A stretch of DNA of 5,433 nt from IMG/VR virus record IMGVR_UViG_2531839486_000011. One strand, written 5' to 3'. Made by a program: the position numbers and the translations under genes. Below, piece by piece: positions 325 to 5,433 of this stretch (its first letter is position 1; every line of letters begins with the position of its first letter). The DNA is from a virus (Duplodnaviria; Heunggongvirae; Uroviricota; Caudoviricetes). The notes below the pieces were generated by a model. It saw only the letters and a program-made list of their open reading frames with translations. It had not been told where the DNA came from and searched no databases.

Positions 325-379
325 CGGCACGTTAAATCATATCAGGCGTAATACCACAACCCTTAAGTTAGCGCTTATG
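1..379 (-). mobile_element. IS186 (IS4 family) insertion sequence, terminal portion; the element continues beyond the window start
   Basis: The reverse complement of 330-379 reads CATAAGCGCTAACTTAAGGGTTGTGGTATTACGCC..., which I recognise as the IS186 terminal inverted repeat. The transposase start lies 55 bp inside the end. Sequence character changes abruptly at 379/380. The other end is off-window, so the target duplication cannot be confirmed. Confidence 0.85.
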
Positions 380-401
380 GGATTCTCCCCCGCCTGGTCT
401 C

Positions 402-557
402 TTACTCCTCAGGTTCGTAAGCTGTGAAGACAGCGACCTCCGTCTGGCCGGTTCGGATTCGTACCTCGCAGAGGTCTTTCCTCGTTACCAGTGCCGTCAC
501 TATGACGGTTAAACAGATGACGATCAGGGCGATTAACATCGCCTTTTGCTGCTTCAT
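402..557 (-). CDS. hokD: Hok/Gef family type I toxin, 51 aa (small membrane-depolarising peptide)
   Basis: The internal ATG at 557-555 of the 70-aa track ORF gives MKQQKAMLIALIVICLTVIVTALVTRKDLCEVRIRTGQTEVAVFTAYEPEE: one hydrophobic helix followed by the conserved TRKDLCE...EVAVF...AYE core of Hok/Gef/RelF. SD AAGGAG lies 9 nt upstream. Assignment to the hokD/relF subtype rather than hokC is from memory and less certain than the family call. Confidence 0.85.
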   Translation of the reverse strand: MKQQKAMLIALIVICLTVIVTALVTRKDLCEVRIRTGQTEVAVFTAYEPEE

Positions 558-614
558 AGCCTGCTTCTCCTTGCCTTTCGGCACGTAAGAGGCTAACCTA
601 GATTTGCCGTTCAT
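402..614 (-). CDS. Mok-like regulatory reading frame (in-frame N-terminal extension of hok, 70 aa)
   Basis: The track ORF 402..614 shares frame and stop with hok and starts 57 nt upstream (ATG at 614-612, SD-like TGAGG upstream). Chromosomal hok loci have such a mok frame that couples hok translation. Whether it is translated here cannot be judged from sequence. Confidence 0.45.
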   Translation of the reverse strand: MNGKSRLASYVPKGKEKQAMKQQKAMLIALIVICLTVIVTALVTRKDLCEVRIRTGQTEVAVFTAYEPEE

Positions 615-660
615 AGATTGAGCCTCAGATTAATGTTAAGCGTCTTGCAGGACGCGTAAT
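606..660 (+). ncRNA. Putative Sok-like antisense RNA opposite the mok start (coordinates approximate, placed by analogy)
   Basis: Hok loci carry a short antisense RNA complementary to the mok translation-initiation region. A possible + strand promoter is TTGCCT (571-576), 17-bp spacer, TAACCT (594-599), which would start transcription near 606. This is positional inference only. Confidence 0.2.
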
Positions 661-1070
661 GTTAACTGGGGCTTTTCTCTATCTGCCTTTGGTGTTCATG
701 CCTGAGACAGATAGCCTCAAGCACCCGCAGCCATTCTACTTAACTCCCGTTACCTCGCCAATATAAAATCAATCAGAAAGGCGATCCATAAGAACAACAG
801 CAAGACAATAAATTGCCATTACAGCTGCAATAGCCAGCGCACATTTGAGAACCAGCACGACAACCTCCTGTATTGGACGTACACCAGTCCTGATAAATAT
901 GAGGCTGTCTCATCATTGATGAGATACAACTATTGGGTATAGTTTCTGTGATTTTGTTCTGTAGAAATGGAACACAACAACCAGTCACCACCAGCACTTC
1001 TTTAAATACGCCAAGTCCGACGCAAGCTAACCTTCTAGTCCGCTTTGAGCGAAAAGCAGACTGTCACGCG

Positions 1071-1175
1071 TTGAAGTTAATTGTATTACTTAGATAAACA
1101 CTATCATTTTCCTGACGTTAAGTTGTATCTTTGATAGGATTAAAAAACGTATAGATAGCTTATGCTACTGAGGGA
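1071..1175 (+). promoter_or_regulatory. AT-rich upstream region of the 1182-1991 gene with Shine-Dalgarno GAGGGA (1170-1175); promoter hexamers not resolved
   Basis: Several sigma70-like hexamers are present (TTGAAG 1071-1076, TTGTAT 1081-1086 and 1123-1128, TTGATA 1131-1136, TATCAT 1102-1107, TATAGA 1150-1155), but no pair has ideal spacing. The SD sits 6-7 nt before the ATG at 1182. Confidence 0.3.
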
Positions 1176-1181
1176 ATAAAA

Positions 1182-1991
1182 ATGACGAAAATTAGTGAAC
1201 GATGGAAGCACAATGGCATTACTGAAGGTTATTGCAATATTTGTGGGAAATATGGCTTTCTCACAAAAGATCATGTTCCTCCAAAGTGCGCCATAACCTT
1301 AGGCCCTGTTTTGCAGAAAACAGTTAGCGAATTTTTTGGTATTCAGGAACCAGTTAAACCATTAAATGCTAAAAATGGCTCTTATTTCAGAACCATTTGC
1401 AGCCACTGTAACAATAAGGTATTAGGTGGGCTCGATGTTGCAATTGAAAATGTAACAAAGTCCTTTAAAGAACAGTTAAGTCGATATATGAATGGTATGA
1501 ATGTATATCCATTCATTAGAATACCTTTTGATAGCATATCTTTCACTAAGGCTATGATTGGGCACGTGCTATCAGCAACTTCAGTTGAAGATTGTAAAAA
1601 AGAACCCGTAGATAGCCCCTTCTATACACCTTTAAAGGATTATGTTTTGGGTAAAAATTCAAGTTTTGAGGAAACTCATGATATTTACTACTGGTTTTAC
1701 CCACACAGAATGCACATATCCGCTCAAAGTGTAGCATTTATGAACGAAGGACATGTGGCATTTATTTGTGCTTTACATTTTTTTCCTATCGGTTTTATTA
1801 TCACAATGAAAAATGAAGGAACATACCCTGCCCACTCTACAAAATTAGAACTTGAAGATAAATTCCTTACATTTAATATGACCTCTATAAATTATGAGTA
1901 TACGACATTTCCATTTGTAAATCTTAAGGGAAACCAAATGTATGCGATAAGCAACGGTCATACTTGTGTGAGTTATCCAATAATTAAGTGA
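1182..1991 (+). CDS. Hypothetical 269-aa protein with N-terminal HNH-like (His-Me finger, zinc-ribbon) nuclease motif; AT-rich, probably horizontally acquired
   Basis: Long ORF with a good RBS. The protein has C18-x2-C21, D31-H32 (TKDHVPPK), Asn candidates at 62/65 and C73-x2-C76-N77 (CSHCNN), the order expected for a zinc-stabilised HNH fold, although the DH to second CxxC spacing (40 aa) is longer than typical. The C-terminal ~190 aa are unrecognised. Hand-sampled G+C is about 35 percent against about 50-55 percent in flanking genes (not computed over the whole gene). Confidence 0.75.
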   Translation: MTKISERWKHNGITEGYCNICGKYGFLTKDHVPPKCAITLGPVLQKTVSEFFGIQEPVKPLNAKNGSYFRTICSHCNNKVLGGLDVAIENVTKSFKEQLSRYMNGMNVYPFIRIPFDSISFTKAMIGHVLSATSVEDCKKEPVDSPFYTPLKDYVLGKNSSFEETHDIYYWFYPHRMHISAQSVAFMNEGHVAFICALHFFPIGFIITMKNEGTYPAHSTKLELEDKFLTFNMTSINYEYTTFPFVNLKGNQMYAISNGHTCVSYPIIK

Positions 1992-2044
1992 CGGCTAAAT
2001 CATACAATCTACGCATGTTCACTTTCTACATATACCATCTATAA

Positions 2045-2070
2045 TGTCCGCTGTTGGCACAAAGCGGACA
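2045..2070. terminator. Stem-loop between convergent genes (8-bp stem TGTCCGCT/AGCGGACA, 10-nt loop); possible weak bidirectional terminator
   Basis: Perfect 8-bp inverted repeat at 2045-2052 and 2063-2070. On the minus-strand transcript it is followed by UUAUAGAU; on the + strand it is not followed by a U-run. It lies between the stop of the + gene (1991) and the stop of the minus gene (2138). Confidence 0.3.
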
Positions 2071-2137
2071 ACCACGCTAGCTCTACCCTGTGCCACAAAA
2101 TGTCAATTTGCATCTGAACTAATGCACTTTAATCTCG

Positions 2138-2560
2138 TCACTTCAATAAATACCGAACATCACCCTGATAAAACGACAATATGCGCTGCATAACTTCACT
2201 CTTCCGGCACTCGCGACAGATTATGTTCTGACGCCTGTCGTAGCGACGTATTTCTCCGTCAGGTAATGACCAGATAAGGTCCGGATCAACCGCAGATGGT
2301 TTCTTCAGCTTTGCCCTTGAGAGCTTTTTACGGGCATTTTGCCAGTCCTTACGCGCCTGTTCAGACGGGAATAACCCGTAACCAGAGTTGTATACATCGC
2401 CGCTGGCAACCAGTTCTCTTGCGAGAACGCTCATCAGATATCTTGTCGCACCTGTCTTGACTTCCAGTTGCCGTAACGTCTCACGCCCACTCTGGCGTAC
2501 GAGTTCAACAACCTGTCCTTTAATTTTTTCCCGCTCTTCTTGTGTAAAAACTTTTGCCAC
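2138..2560 (-). CDS. Hypothetical phage protein, 140 aa, in the position of the second replication gene (helicase-loader slot); GTG start
   Basis: Track ORF 2138..2560. The start codon is GTG (reverse complement of 2558-2560) preceded by a strong SD AGGAGG 4 nt upstream. It is basic and has a C-terminal CRECRK motif. No family recognised; it does not resemble lambda P or DnaC-type loaders. Confidence 0.7.
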   Translation of the reverse strand: MAKVFTQEEREKIKGQVVELVRQSGRETLRQLEVKTGATRYLMSVLARELVASGDVYNSGYGLFPSEQARKDWQNARKKLSRAKLKKPSAVDPDLIWSLPDGEIRRYDRRQNIICRECRKSEVMQRILSFYQGDVRYLLK

Positions 2561-2600
2561 AAGCCCTCCTGAAAATTACCTCATGACCAGAAATTAACAC

Positions 2601-3671
2601 TTACCCCCTGAAGCCCGGCGGAATTTCGTTATCCGGTTCAGAAATATGATTCACACAACGCTGGTTGTTCGTGCCGCTTACCGGGAGCAACCAGGGGTTC
2701 TCAAAATTCCGGTCCGGTCCAAAAAACGTCGTCGCTCGCTGAACAAATTCCGTTCCCGTTTTCCCGGTAGCCGCCAAGTATCTTGCGTAACGCCTCACGC
2801 CATCCAGCATGGCTTCTGGTGGCACCCCCTCGCGTAATCTGGCCTTCCAGGCACTGAAAGCGGATTTCTTCGGGTTTGCTCCGGCACGCAACGGGTACTC
2901 CCGCCAGACCTGTTCGAACACATCCGGATAATCCACTCGTCCCACAGACTGCCCGGTGTTTTCCGGGACTACCCGATCGGCTTCCCGCTGAATGGCGGAA
3001 TCGGCTTCGGGCTGCTGCAGTTGGTGTGATTGCTCCGGCCTTGCGGTCATCACCTGCTGCACAGCGCCCGAATCGGCTTTCAGCGCATACGCTGAATCGG
3101 CTTCCGGTGTCGTGCCTGCTGGCTGACCAAGATTGACGGTCTGAACATCCCCTGCCTGGTTCGTGGCGTTTTTTACGCCATGGACCATAGTGTTTTGATC
3201 TTCTTGATCTGTATCTTTATCTGTATCTTTATCTGTCGTGACTCGTCGTGACATGTGCGTGACATTTCGTGACGCGCCGTGACAATCGCCATTTTGTTCC
3301 CGCTTTCTTTCCCTCTCTCGCTGCGCCCTCTTGCGCTCTGCAGGAGATTTTGCGGTTTGCGAAATATTGCCGTTGTCCTCTTTAAGCACCTGGCGTTTTT
3401 CCCATCCAGTGATTAAATCACCATCAAGTACCCGCCCCTGCATCGTCTGCAAAATTGAATCAATTACCTCTTCTGTCACGTCGAGCGCACTTGCCAAATC
3501 TTCTGTCGTGACATCAATGTGACCTCGCGTGACATTTCGTGACGCGCTCACCAGGAGGTGGATATACACTGCCATCACTGTTGCAATTGGCTGCCCTGAC
3601 ACTCTGGCAATTGTTCGCCACTTAGGGTCATTTGGCATGTCATGCCATAATCTGAGCCAGGCGTTAGCCAT
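2601..3671 (-). CDS. Putative phage replication initiator / replisome organiser (O-like position), about 356 aa
   Basis: Track ORF 2601..3677 begins at a GTG. The ATG two codons in (3671-3669) has a better SD (GAGG about 5 nt upstream), so I place the start at 3671. It is the third gene of the cro-side operon. The coding sequence contains iteron-like phased repeats and encodes a low-complexity acidic linker (TDKDTDKDTDQEDQ) between two domains, as in lambda O with ori inside the gene. Domain identity itself was not recognised with certainty. Confidence 0.7.
   Translation of the reverse strand: MANAWLRLWHDMPNDPKWRTIARVSGQPIATVMAVYIHLLVSASRNVTRGHIDVTTEDLASALDVTEEVIDSILQTMQGRVLDGDLITGWEKRQVLKEDNGNISQTAKSPAERKRAQRERERKREQNGDCHGASRNVTHMSRRVTTDKDTDKDTDQEDQNTMVHGVKNATNQAGDVQTVNLGQPAGTTPEADSAYALKADSGAVQQVMTARPEQSHQLQQPEADSAIQREADRVVPENTGQSVGRVDYPDVFEQVWREYPLRAGANPKKSAFSAWKARLREGVPPEAMLDGVRRYARYLAATGKTGTEFVQRATTFFGPDRNFENPWLLPVSGTNNQRCVNHISEPDNEIPPGFRG
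3207..3284. repeat. Repeat cluster 1 inside the replication gene: 12-bp tandem ATCTGTATCTTT (about 2.5 copies, 3207-3236) followed by five CGTGAC motifs at 10-11 bp phasing (3237, 3247, 3258, 3268, 3278)
   Basis: Read directly from the sequence. Spacings of 10, 11, 10 and 10 bp equal one helical turn. Candidate origin iterons. Confidence 0.5.
3475..3547. repeat. Repeat cluster 2 inside the replication gene: (C/T)GTGAC motifs at 3507, 3518, 3528, 3538 (10-11 bp phasing) plus an inverted copy GTCACG at 3475-3480
   Basis: Read directly from the sequence. Includes a 21-bp exact direct repeat of cluster 1: GCGTGACATTTCGTGACGCGC at 3257-3277 and 3527-3547. Confidence 0.5.
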
Positions 3672-3741
3672 ACTCACCTCTTCTGATACCGAATCTTTTA
3701 CTCACGAGTTGCCGGAAGCGATTCGATATGGCTATTATCAC

Positions 3742-4167
3742 TCAATGCACTGCCACAGCATTTCCTGCCGGGCCACCACGGTTCATCTGATTGAAACCGG
3801 CGATTGCCACTGCGACAAAATCATCAGCGTCTCTCACCAGTCGCTCCCGCGTCTCCACCAGCTCCCGAAAATAAGCTGAACTGTGGCTGCGCATTCTGGC
3901 CACCAGCAAAGGTGGCATTGCCTTTTCGATCGCTGGTAACAACGCCTGAATTTTTTCAACTGCATCAGGGGTGTCTTTCTCTACCCAGCGGAAAATTTTC
4001 TGGGTATTGCGAGCCAGGGCTTCCGGATGGCTGTCGTCATACAGTTCTGGGAACGTCATACCCAGTTCAAAATAAGCCCTGGTTATTTCAGCTGCCGGAA
4101 CTTTTTCACCGTCCGGATGCGCCCAGGCATTCATCGCCATGCGGATGTGTTCATGCTTGATTTTCAT
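3742..4167 (-). CDS. ydaT: YdaT-like protein (CII-position protein / toxic component of the Rac-type YdaS-YdaT module), 141 aa
   Basis: Track ORF with ATG at 4167-4165 and SD AGGAG 8 nt upstream. The N-terminus MKIKHEHIR and the size match my recollection of Rac YdaT. It is the second gene after the Cro-like gene and overlaps its stop by 17 nt. Confidence 0.7.
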   Translation of the reverse strand: MKIKHEHIRMAMNAWAHPDGEKVPAAEITRAYFELGMTFPELYDDSHPEALARNTQKIFRWVEKDTPDAVEKIQALLPAIEKAMPPLLVARMRSHSSAYFRELVETRERLVRDADDFVAVAIAGFNQMNRGGPAGNAVAVH

Positions 4168-4432
4168 GAATCAAGCTCCTAGAAAGTGGTTGTGTTAACG
4201 TTTTGGTATCTTCCAGCTCGGGCCAAATATTCATCCAATCAAAAGGCCTTAGTTGCTGACGTGTAACTTCACCATTACTGGCTCGCTCAATAAGGACACA
4301 TAACGATGCCCCTAACACTTGACCTTTACTCAATGCCTTTCTTAGATAACCGATGCTGGTACCACACTCGCATGCAAACATACGCTGTTCATCTGACGAA
4401 AGAGAATTGAGAAATATTCTTAATTCTTCCAT
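4151..4432 (-). CDS. ydaS: Cro/YdaS-like small DNA-binding protein, 93 aa
   Basis: Track ORF with ATG at 4432-4430 and SD AAGGAG 6 nt upstream. It is the first gene of the operon divergent from the repressor. The motif ...IERASNGEVTRQQLRPFDW...WPEL resembles the YdaS/Cro-like family (recalled, not searched). Confidence 0.7.
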   Translation of the reverse strand: MEELRIFLNSLSSDEQRMFACECGTSIGYLRKALSKGQVLGASLCVLIERASNGEVTRQQLRPFDWMNIWPELEDTKTLTQPLSRSLIHENQA

Positions 4433-4532
4433 AGCTACTCCTTAGTAAACACAGTAAAGAATACCCACAGGTAAACAAAAGTCAATACCCACAGGTTGTT
4501 TACCTTGCGGTAATCGCATCTATTATTTACCT
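4433..4532. promoter_or_regulatory. Divergent promoter/operator region between the Cro-like gene and the repressor gene, with two operator-like sites TACCCACAGGTA (4462-4473) and TACCCACAGGTT (4486-4497)
   Basis: Minus-strand candidate promoter: -35 TTGACT (4485-4480), 16-bp spacer, -10 TATTCT (4463-4458). Plus-strand candidate: -10 TATTAT (4521-4526) placing +1 at about the repressor ATG (4533), with no SD, so a leaderless mRNA as for lambda cI from PRM; its -35 is weak. The two sites are 24 bp apart and overlap the promoter elements. Confidence 0.45.
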
Positions 4533-4952
4533 ATGGACAAATATGAATTTAGACGACAGCAACTCATCAAAATTCGTGATGAGAAATGCGATGGTAAAGC
4601 GGTTAACGTGGCCAGAAAGATCGGGCGCGAGCCTTCTTATGTATCAAGAATGTTGTACCCAGAGGGGAAAAAGGGAAAAAAACGGATCGCTGATGATATG
4701 GTGGAGATTATCGAAGAGTCCTTTGGGTTACCCCGGGGATGGATGGATGGTATCGTTTCATCATCAACGAACACAGCCTCCAGTTATGAAACAAGGGTTC
4801 TAACGCCACGACAACGTATTTTTTTAGATCTCTTAGACGAACTGCCAGAAAGTGAAGCGGATAACTTATTAAAAACTCTTGAAGAGAAAAAACAGTATTA
4901 CAATATGATCTACGAAGAAATCCGTAAAAAGAAAGCACAAAACGCATCATAG
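4533..4952 (+). CDS. Prophage repressor-like HTH DNA-binding protein, 139 aa (cI/RacR functional position)
   Basis: Track ORF with ATG at 4533 and no SD (consistent with a leaderless transcript). Probable helix-turn-helix around GKAVNVARKIGREPSYVSRML. It is divergent from the Cro-like operon. No peptidase S24 motif was recognised. Confidence 0.7.
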   Translation: MDKYEFRRQQLIKIRDEKCDGKAVNVARKIGREPSYVSRMLYPEGKKGKKRIADDMVEIIEESFGLPRGWMDGIVSSSTNTASSYETRVLTPRQRIFLDLLDELPESEADNLLKTLEEKKQYYNMIYEEIRKKKAQNAS

Positions 4953-4994
4953 CTCACCAAACAACTAGTCACCAGTTAAGACACCGCAAAAAGT

Positions 4995-5035
4995 TACCCA
5001 TGGGTATTTACTTTTTAAATACCTATGGGTATCCT
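4995..5035 (+). promoter_or_regulatory. OL/PL-like region: perfect 12-bp palindrome TACCCATGGGTA (4995-5006) and near-copy TACCTATGGGTA (5020-5031) flanking a candidate promoter (-35 TTTACT 5007-5012, -10 TATCCT 5030-5035)
   Basis: Palindromes read directly from the sequence. They share the TACCCA...GGTA half-sites of the two sites in the divergent region, with a similar 25-bp centre spacing. Located downstream of the repressor gene and upstream of the small + strand genes. Confidence 0.45.
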
Positions 5036-5217
5036 TCTTTTCATACCAACCCACCCCGCCCCACAGAATGCAGGGCAATACTTCGAGTTACCAGGCAGTG
5101 GTCAGGGGTTAAGTAGCCAGCCCGAGGCGTAAGAACATGACGGCAGGGTTCAACTTTAATAACTATGCAGCAGGTTTTTGTTCCGCTACCCCGGCGTTAA
5201 GGGGAAATGAGGTCAGC

Positions 5218-5373
5218 ATGGATACTATCGATCTTGGCAACAGCGAATCTCTGGTATGTGGCGTGTTCCCCAACCAGGACGGTACGTTCACCGCGATGAC
5301 GTATACCAAAAGCAAAACGTTTAAAACCGAAAATGGTGCCCGTCGCTGGCTGGAAAGAAACTCAGGTGAGTGA
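5218..5373 (+). CDS. Small prophage protein, 51 aa, YdfA/YdaF-like (DUF1391-like); alternative upstream start at 5137 gives 78 aa
   Basis: The track ORF is 5137..5373. The internal ATG at 5218 has a better SD (GAGGT 5-6 nt upstream) and gives MDTIDLGNSESLVCGVFPNQDGTFTAMTYTKSKTFKTENGARRWLERNSGE, the size and sequence type I recall for the small proteins next to Rac/Qin repressors. Confidence 0.6.
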   Translation: MDTIDLGNSESLVCGVFPNQDGTFTAMTYTKSKTFKTENGARRWLERNSGE

Positions 5374-5374
5374 T

Positions 5375-5433
5375 ATGGATTTCGACACAATCATGGAAAA
5401 GGCTTACGAAGAATACTTCGAAGGTCTTGCCGA
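5375..5433 (+). CDS. Small hypothetical protein, 5' end only (MDFDTIMEKAYEEYFEGLA...), continues beyond the window
   Basis: ATG at 5375 lies 1 nt after the upstream stop codon (5371-5373), with SD-like GGTGAG at 5365-5370, suggesting translational coupling. It is not in the ORF track because no stop falls within the window. Confidence 0.45.
   Translation, partial: MDFDTIMEKAYEEYFEGLA

Follow-up and report, generated by a model that had tools for sequence, protein, structure and literature searches.

The intergenic regions on either side of a 139-residue repressor gene in virus record IMGVR_UViG_2531839486_000011 carry five related palindromes that, with a probability of roughly 0.85, serve as operators in the immunity region of a Qin-like lambdoid Escherichia coli prophage. 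The window, meaning the whole stretch of 5433 bp to which all coordinates refer, is the immunity and replication region of that prophage. Its upstream cluster reads as a λ-style operator triplet and its downstream cluster as a pair, giving a 3+2 map. While the type of switch is known, its immunity specificity appears to be new; the design is unsurprising and, as far as the searchable literature shows, undescribed. The candidate operators and the two regulator genes that frame them are as follows.

4151..4432, minus strand: Cro analogue (YdaS-like), 93 aa, first gene of the PR operon; phrog_35, E 5e-23
4462..4473: OR1-like operator TACCCACAGGTA, within the PR spacer with a 2-bp overlap with the PR -10; exact motif match
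4486..4497: OR2-like operator TACCCACAGGTT, between the -35 hexamers of PR and PRM and abutting both; one arm degenerate
4501..4512: OR3-like operator TACCTTGCGGTA, over the PRM -35 and spacer; exact motif match
4533..4952, plus strand: immunity repressor, 139 aa; phrog_5736 transcriptional regulator, E 4e-70
4995..5006: OL2-like operator TACCCATGGGTA, perfect palindrome directly upstream of the PL -35
5020..5031: OL1-like operator TACCTATGGGTA, in the PL spacer and ending on the first two bases of the -10

The motif that defines the sites, TACCNNNNGGTA (TACCN4GGTA), occurs exactly four times in the window against 0.03 expected, and none of 200 dinucleotide-preserving shuffles reached four. 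The remaining site, OR2 at 4486, carries a mismatch in one arm (GGTT). The search was extended to a 45-kb genome stretch (L004; 30 kb of prophage and 15 kb of host flank) that is 100% identical to the window over 379-5433. There the same four sites are the only exact matches, against 0.23 expected, and all of them are confined to two intergenic regions. Measured start to start, OR1 and OR2 are 24 bp apart and OL2 and OL1 25 bp apart, while OR3 starts 15 bp after OR2. The gap of 100 bp between cro and the repressor gene holds OR1, OR2 and OR3, the repressor stop (4952) lies 42 bp before OL2, and the two clusters are separated by about 530 bp. A preliminary description of this DNA had listed OR1, OR2, OL2 and OL1 as four 12-mers, with a perfect palindrome at 4995-5006 and spacings of 24 and 25 bp, all of which proved exact; the wider motif search it had proposed found no further exact copy in these 30 kb of prophage or in the host flank. 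A sixth, weak match, TACCTATGGACA (4528-4539, three mismatches, over the ATG), occurs in no related locus and was treated as chance.

The same layout recurs well beyond E. coli. The comparison set consisted of 12 loci, namely the lambdoid phage mEp043 and 11 genome loci from Edwardsiella (2), Brenneria, Pantoea, Leclercia, Yersinia, Arsenophonus (2), an Escherichia species and two metagenome-assembled genomes, whose repressor N-terminal domains are 66-82% identical to that of the window. Upstream of the repressor ATG, 12 of 12 have three sites, at about -72, -47 and -32 (OR1 equivalent 71-75 nt before the ATG, OR2 at -47 to -50, OR3 at -32 to -35). All 12 also have a downstream pair, 24-26 bp apart around a promoter, which lies 0.46 to 2.5 kb away depending on the number of inserted genes. 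When 60 sites are pooled and read on both strands, the half-site is (A/T)(T/A)TACC(C/T), with 1.4-1.8 bits per position in the TACC/GGTA arms, 0.6-0.9 in the flanks and almost none in the centre. The central 4 bp are most variable in the OR3 equivalents. The 3' arm of the OR2 equivalent is always degenerate (GGTT, GGCC, GGGC or GACA), while OR1, OR3, OL1 and OL2 retain both arms throughout; the ranking of a weaker upstream pair and a stronger downstream pair in the preliminary description is not borne out by this pattern.

Within the comparison, the motif keeps company with particular protein domains. A Cro homologue (57-73% identical) is encoded divergently from the repressor in all 12 motif-bearing loci, whereas the repressor C-terminal domain is an S24 peptidase in nine and a short helical domain, the type found in the window, in three. 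No motif and no Cro homologue were detected in an Advenella relative whose repressor N-terminal domain is 42% identical, and prophage Tritos, which shares the C-terminal domain of the window repressor and has another N-terminal domain, carries none of these sites in its intergenic regions. It is therefore the repressor N-terminal domain and Cro that the motif accompanies, and not the C-terminal domain, as expected of operators. One DNA-reading module, together with its operator layout (pairs 24-25 bp apart and a 15-bp OR2-OR3 interval), is naturally joined to two unrelated C-terminal domains, an S24 peptidase and a helical domain of the PaaR2/DicA type.

Aside from the shared sites, five of the related loci have a wide palindrome, TACCTG-N10-CAGGTA, in which the same half-site is set one helical turn further apart (L002 at 4054-4075, and also L008, L010, L011 and L013). 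It sits about 21 bp upstream of OL2 in those loci, is absent from the window, and may be a third OL element of unusual geometry.

Turning to transcription, a consensus scan of 4380-5240 returned exactly two promoter-like sites, PR and PRM, both of which overlap operators. PL was identified because its operator/-35/operator/-10 design is the same as that of PR and of the PL regions of the 12 related loci, where the hexamers are often better (for example TTGATA...TATATT or TAGACA...TATATT).

4458..4485, minus strand: PR-like promoter (cro/ydaT/replication operon), -35 TTGACT at 4485-4480, 16-nt spacer, -10 TATTCT at 4463-4458
4499..4526, plus strand: PRM-like promoter (repressor gene), -35 TTTACC at 4499-4504, 16-nt spacer, -10 TATTAT at 4521-4526
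5007..5035, plus strand: PL-like promoter (ydfABC-dicF-dicB early-left operon), -35 TTTACT at 5007-5012, 17-nt spacer, -10 TATCCT at 5030-5035

PR matches the consensus at 9 of 12 positions. Starts were predicted by placing them 7 nt past each -10, at 4451 for PR, 4533 for PRM and about 5042 for PL (range about 5041-5043). A PR start near 4451 would give a 19-nt leader with the Shine-Dalgarno sequence AAGGAG (4443-4438). Against this background, the λ-like switch of the preliminary description holds in part. Its OR-like and OL-like sites stand, given the layout in 12 loci and the position of PR and PRM on the sites, but the upstream pair that it had put in charge of the repressor/cro choice is a triplet. 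The site it missed, OR3 at 4501-4512, lies over the repressor promoter and would thereby allow repression of the repressor gene, which is the repressor/cro choice itself.

The preliminary description had also proposed a leaderless repressor transcript, and here the comparison agrees with it. The TATTAT hexamer (4521-4526) is followed after 6 nt by ATG 4533, with no Shine-Dalgarno sequence. This ATG is the first possible start codon of the repressor open reading frame (ORF), and the N-terminus it encodes, MDKYE, is invariant among homologues. In 12 of 12 related loci a -10 hexamer likewise stands 6-7 nt ahead of a repressor ATG that lacks a Shine-Dalgarno sequence. The same geometry (GATAAT, 6 nt, ATG) precedes paaR2 in L018, a true CP-933P-type locus located via a published primer sequence. 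Transcription of CP-933P paaR2 starts at the start codon, as established by 5' RACE, by N-terminal sequencing and by mass spectrometry (PMC8630535). A predicted PRM start at or next to A4533 would make the window's repressor mRNA leaderless as well, a reading that is well supported by analogy and conservation.

The repressor consists of a helix-turn-helix N-terminal domain (residues 1 to about 76), a disordered linker (77-86) and a helical C-terminal domain of the DicA/PaaR2 type (92-138). In the AlphaFold2 model, with a predicted local distance difference test score (pLDDT) of 86, a disordered linker joins a helical N-terminal domain to two C-terminal helices. Fold comparison matched it best to the repressor of a temperate Salmonella phage, whose structure was solved together with its anti-repressor, and to further helix-turn-helix proteins of the XRE type. 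The first 80 or so residues are 65-82% identical to the N-terminal domains of many S24-type phage repressors of 221-242 aa, including mEp043 cI, while the C-terminal domain is 72% identical to that of Tritos CI. A BLASTP alignment with PaaR2 from L018 (23% identity over 90 residues, E 9e-9) spans the presumed recognition helix and the C-terminal domain. Peptidase_S24 was found in the 139-aa protein neither by Pfam nor in the model, and Pfam and NCBIfam returned no helix-turn-helix family and only a sub-threshold DicA C-terminal match. In RefSeq the protein is named 'hypothetical protein'. Two other assignments were set aside: equivalence to DicA, because NCBIfam NF007257 covers residues 86-136 only (23.9 bits against a cutoff of 101), and matches to ADAR1 Z-alpha from a PDB sequence search, which were insignificant (E 0.08 or worse) and were disregarded.

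One feature of the repressor gene concerns its integrity in other strains. A run, GGGGAAAAAGGGAAAAAAACGG, lies at 4664-4684, and the database proteins P0012, P0015 and P0018 start in an alternative frame (ATG 4543, MNLDDSNSS...) but are back in the repressor frame once past it. Frameshifted repressor alleles, presumably dead, are thus present in some E. coli genomes.

The Cro analogue is 73% identical to mEp043 Cro and 36% identical to CP-933P YdaS (E 5e-17), and its Pfam YdaS_toxin match falls below the cutoff. Further along the same operon is a third regulator, YdaT, whose gene junction with cro holds an operator of another kind.

3742..4167, minus strand: YdaT, CII analogue, 141 aa; Pfam YdaT_toxin, phrog_163 CII-like activator
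4157..4174: YdaT operator OM TTGATTTTCATGAATCAA, overlapping the ydaT start codon and the cro 3' end; exact match to a footprinted repeat

The protein is nearly identical to PDB entry 3c4r (E 2e-91) and closely matches 8bt1, the YdaT of CP-933P (E 1e-80). YdaT footprints an 18-bp repeat, 5'-TTGATTN6AATCAA-3' (PMC9986795), and the 18-mer of the window is found unchanged at the same cro/ydaT junction in L018. This arm of the switch (4157-4174) lies outside the coordinates covered by the preliminary description and was absent from its model.

Several other explanations for the palindromes can be considered. With 40-44% GC in the region, repeats might arise by chance in AT-rich intergenic DNA, but this is refuted by the shuffles, the restriction of matches to two intergenic regions of 45 kb and the conservation of layout across genera, and its probability is vanishingly small. 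The sites could also be bound by a protein other than the repressor, whether a host factor or just the YdaS-like Cro, in which case the 139-aa protein would act elsewhere. Cro does co-occur with the motif, no less strictly than the repressor N-terminal domain. That domain, however, stays 66-82% identical across genera while the C-terminal domain is swapped, as expected if it reads the sites, and in CP-933P the intergenic region is footprinted by PaaR2 as well as by YdaS (PMC8630535). The motif is also gone from the Advenella relative, although the two proteins are not separated by this case as Cro is undetected there too. On these grounds another binder has a slim chance. A model of two pairs, with two upstream operators only and none over the repressor promoter, is right that both of its upstream sites are real and lie 24 bp apart; it leaves out the third exact match over the PRM -35 and spacer, which recurs at the same offset in all 12 related loci, and its chance is very slim.

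The alternative with most to recommend it concerns the downstream pair alone, which can also be read as RNA.

4990..5041, plus strand: RNA hairpin of OL2/OL1 followed by UCCUUCUUUU, 16-bp stem and 5-nt loop (terminator scan); candidate intrinsic terminator of the repressor transcript

If so, the pair at 4995-5031 would mainly be a terminator of the repressor gene, and its likeness to the upstream sites would be secondary. The pair is called by the terminator scan with a T-rich tail, folds at -24.1 kcal/mol (z = -4.3), and is the most stable and the only uninterrupted hairpin among 12 loci folded. The scan found no other terminator-like site between the repressor stop (4952) and PL, a position at which a paralogous prophage of E. 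coli O157:H7 EDL933 (L017) and Tritos both have a T-run-containing sequence that is terminator-like by eye. Yet the pair is kept in the 12 related loci at the same position relative to the -35 and -10, while the hairpins of the other 11 loci folded mostly score a weak -7 to -18 kcal/mol, are broken by large internal loops and have no U-tract. Several related loci have the pair 1-2.5 kb past the repressor gene, in some cases beyond a separate terminator-like sequence (by eye), and mutual pairing is to be expected of any two similar palindromes 25 bp apart. A terminator as the main function is therefore improbable. As an addition to the operator function, it is plausible, with the odds leaning somewhat against it: the OL2-OL1 spacer of the window is self-complementary beyond the pairing of the palindromes themselves. 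If this dual role is true, one 50-bp element would provide both a repressible PL and a stop to read-through from an always-on repressor gene into the toxic dicF/dicB. The wider proposal, that the OL pair doubles as a terminator of a leaderless mRNA and, separately, that cooperativity and looping at this layout are independent of any particular oligomerisation domain, is doubtful. If the occurrence of two C-terminal types on one module has this meaning, neither pairwise cooperativity nor OR-OL looping would need a particular oligomerisation domain.

Some observations weigh against the palindromes being operators of a λ-style switch. The terminator-like fold of the OL pair offers an alternative reason for part of its symmetry, and PL, at 8 of 12 consensus positions, is under the scan threshold and was not called. 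There are two OL sites where λ has three, and the OR2-OR3 centres are 15 bp apart against about 23 in λ, a spacing for which the sequence does not tell whether both are occupied at once or in what order the sites fill. As for the proteins, the repressor N-terminal domain goes unrecognised by Pfam, and the fold search gave weak E-values, at best 1.8e-3. A BLAST comparison of that domain with Cro gave no alignment, so their shared recognition of the operators is an analogy with λ and CP-933P; the suggestion that the two have detectably alike recognition helices was dropped for the same reason. Lastly, no operator, binding or start-site study of this specificity group came up in literature searches on mEp043, on the accession of the repressor and on its PHROG family.

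The switch proposed here, from the identity of the binder and its cooperativity to activation from OR2, the transcription starts and the route of induction, is a reading of sequence. A dimer of the 139-aa repressor most likely recognises (A/T)(T/A)TACC(C/T)-NN-(A/G)GGTA(A/T)(A/T), and the YdaS-like Cro probably does so too. In the silent prophage, repressor on OR1 and OR2 and on OL1 and OL2, as cooperative pairs 24-25 bp apart, would shut PR and PL. From OR2, whose centre is at -41.5 relative to the repressor ATG, repressor could also contact RNA polymerase and stimulate PRM, in the manner of λ cI from about -42. Excess repressor, or Cro, on OR3 would then shut PRM. YdaT made from PR would occupy the operator where cro and ydaT meet and, as in CP-933P, activate an establishment promoter that reads towards the repressor gene; a low-confidence candidate for this promoter, noticed by eye, is TGtTAACGT at 4193-4201. 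Because the repressor has no S24 peptidase domain, RecA-mediated cleavage is not expected at induction, which is instead expected to proceed through an anti-repressor or bistable switching as for DicA/Rem (bioRxiv 10.1101/2023.04.14.536235). PaaR2 forms octamers (PMC8630535), and by analogy looping between OR and OL over about 530 bp is conceivable.

Four known systems help to place this switch. The cI/Cro switch of λ, with its OR1-3, OL1-3, PR, PRM, PL and leaderless cI, is the established point of reference. As in λ, three operators lie between the divergent PR and PRM, with the cro-proximal site in PR, the middle one beside the PRM -35 and the third in PRM. The spacing within pairs is 24-25 bp, and a further set of operators lies at PL, which follows the repressor gene on the same strand. 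The start codon of the repressor stands without a Shine-Dalgarno sequence at the predicted start site, and there is an establishment arm of the CII type. These searches nevertheless detected no sequence relationship between the window's regulators and λ cI or Cro. The operator core is 12 bp (14-16 bp with flanks) compared to 17 bp in λ, and about 530 bp separate OR from OL where λ has about 2.4 kb. Moreover, the λ repressor has the S24 domain that is lacking here, and the place of CII is taken by the unrelated YdaT.

The module of CP-933P/Sp12 in E. coli O157:H7 has the same order of ydaT, ydaS, a gap of about 100 bp, repressor, PL and a dicB-type operon. PaaR2 is homologous to the window's repressor over both domains, both lacking S24, the Cro proteins are homologous and the YdaT proteins closely related. 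The likeness extends to the identical 18-bp YdaT operator, to the equal -10/6 nt/ATG geometry and to the presence of operators at both OR and PL. PaaR2 and YdaS repress PR, PRM and a PL promoter in reporter assays, and the operators of CP-933P have the consensus GTTTAGTAA, with four 18-bp palindromes and three other repeats (PMC8630535). In a scan of L018 for TAGTN4ACTA, all three sites with at most one mismatch fell in the OR and PL regions, while the count at two mismatches was not above chance, which makes an equal geometry in CP-933P no more than a lead. The half-sites of CP-933P are of the TTTAGT type, whereas those of the window are of the TACC type in a 3+2 arrangement. The operator sequence of CP-933P is unmatched in the window, and the immunity specificity therefore differs. 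In addition, the paaA2-parE2 toxin-antitoxin pair that follows the repressor gene in CP-933P has no counterpart in the window's ORF list or by Pfam, and the window's module belongs to a seemingly complete prophage, unlike the cryptic CP-933P. The EDL933 locus L017 (NZ_CP120944.1 3405807-3411241) had been taken for CP-933P and was rejected as a paralogous prophage, since its repressor starts MMSA rather than MQKKE and its YdaT differs from PDB 8bt1. L017 encodes a PaaR-like HTH_3 repressor of 133 aa, a RelB/ParE-family pair, ydaS and ydaT, and has an operator type of its own, AAAAACTGT...ACAGTTTTT palindromes at OR and PL.

In the Qin prophage of E. coli K-12, the DicA/DicC/dicBp module likewise places a short, non-cleavable repressor just ahead of ydfA-ydfB-ydfC-dicF-dicB, and its operators are likewise found in two places, the divergent intergenic region and the promoter of the dicB operon (bioRxiv 10.1101/2023.04.14.536235). 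The same study describes DicA as a short repressor similar to the lambdoid CI and P22 C2 repressors, a precedent that makes the swap of the C-terminal domain unsurprising. The C-terminal domain of DicA is matched by the last 50 or so residues of the window's repressor, and hokD/sok is nearby in both. Qin differs in its N-terminal DNA-binding domain and operators and has DicC in place of a YdaS-like Cro, and the window adds a ydaT gene.

The fourth system is mEp043 (GenBank PV340537, JQ182734), which agrees with the window in operator motif, number, offsets and promoter design, and whose cI N-terminal domain is 65-76% identical to that of the window's repressor. The two probably share their immunity specificity or come close to it. 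Among the differences, mEp043 cI has 228 aa with an S24 peptidase, a cII gene is annotated rather than ydaT, an N gene follows PL, and an extra gene and a separate terminator-like sequence (by eye) lie between cI and OL.

An operator definition (wTACCy-NN-rGGTAw) and a 3+2 map are now available for a relative of PaaR2, the exact binding sequences of which were left open by the CP-933P study (PMC8630535). The natural exchange of S24 and PaaR2/DicA-type C-terminal domains provides material on how induction mode and cooperativity are exchanged among lambdoid phages. Current understanding and models of such switches are neither overturned nor challenged.

The wider setting is that of a Qin-like prophage. 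Beyond the regulators, the following genes are of note.

2138-2560, minus strand: DUF977 gene
2601-3677, minus strand: replication-initiator gene
5218..5373, plus strand: ydfA (DUF1391), first gene of the PL operon; Pfam DUF1391 and RefSeq annotation of identical DNA

In identical genomes the sequence continues beyond ydfA with ydfB, ydfC, dicB, ydfD, an exonuclease, xis and int. On the left, the homology of many other E. coli prophages on the ydaT side ends at about 4172-4179, inside the cro 3' end. On the right, the Qin-like prophages L017 and Tritos are nearly identical to the window from about 5043-5045 on, which is the predicted PL start, and L018 has, by eye, the same leader sequence just after its PL region. 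Judged by these borders, 4180-5045 is a classical 'imm' cassette comprising most of cro, OR, the repressor gene and OL/PL, and with them all that is specific to this immunity type. The cassette is found in 824 of 5426 complete E. coli genomes (15%), 701 of them at 99% identity or more and almost always in single copy, and its carriers include ST131, avian pathogenic E. coli and O157:H7 strains. The module stands directly upstream of the ydfABC-dicF-dicB operon, which it most likely controls; the operon encodes cell-division inhibitors that affect growth and phage resistance.

The leader from the PL start to ydfA (5045-5217) is nearly identical in the window, L017 and Tritos, that is, across three different immunity modules, and that of L018 begins alike. 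It opens with a C-rich tract, ACCAACCCACCCCGCCCCAC, and the conservation of 170 untranslated nucleotides suggests a regulatory role.

At the other end of the window, positions 1-378 belong to the end of an IS4-like IS421 element and match annotated copies of the IS421 family transposase at 100% identity. This end adjoins hokD/sok, and homology with otherwise identical genomes that have no insertion there begins at 379. The type I toxin-antitoxin locus spans 402-726 on the minus strand, with a Hok/Gef family toxin ORF at 402-614, for which RefSeq annotates a 51-aa HokD core, and a sok antisense RNA at 552-726 (Rfam RF01794, 110 bits). It is followed by a 269-aa ORF (1182-1991, plus strand) that runs opposite to its neighbours in an island of 35-38% GC. 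While Pfam, NCBIfam and PADLOC returned no match for this ORF, it has a full-length match to phrog_21495 (unknown function) and looks like a moron. Finally, the replication-initiator gene contains TCGTGAC(A/G) repeats at 3236-3290 and 3500-3545, with four exact copies against 0.27 expected and looser copies by eye, which resemble origin iterons inside an initiator gene as in λ O.

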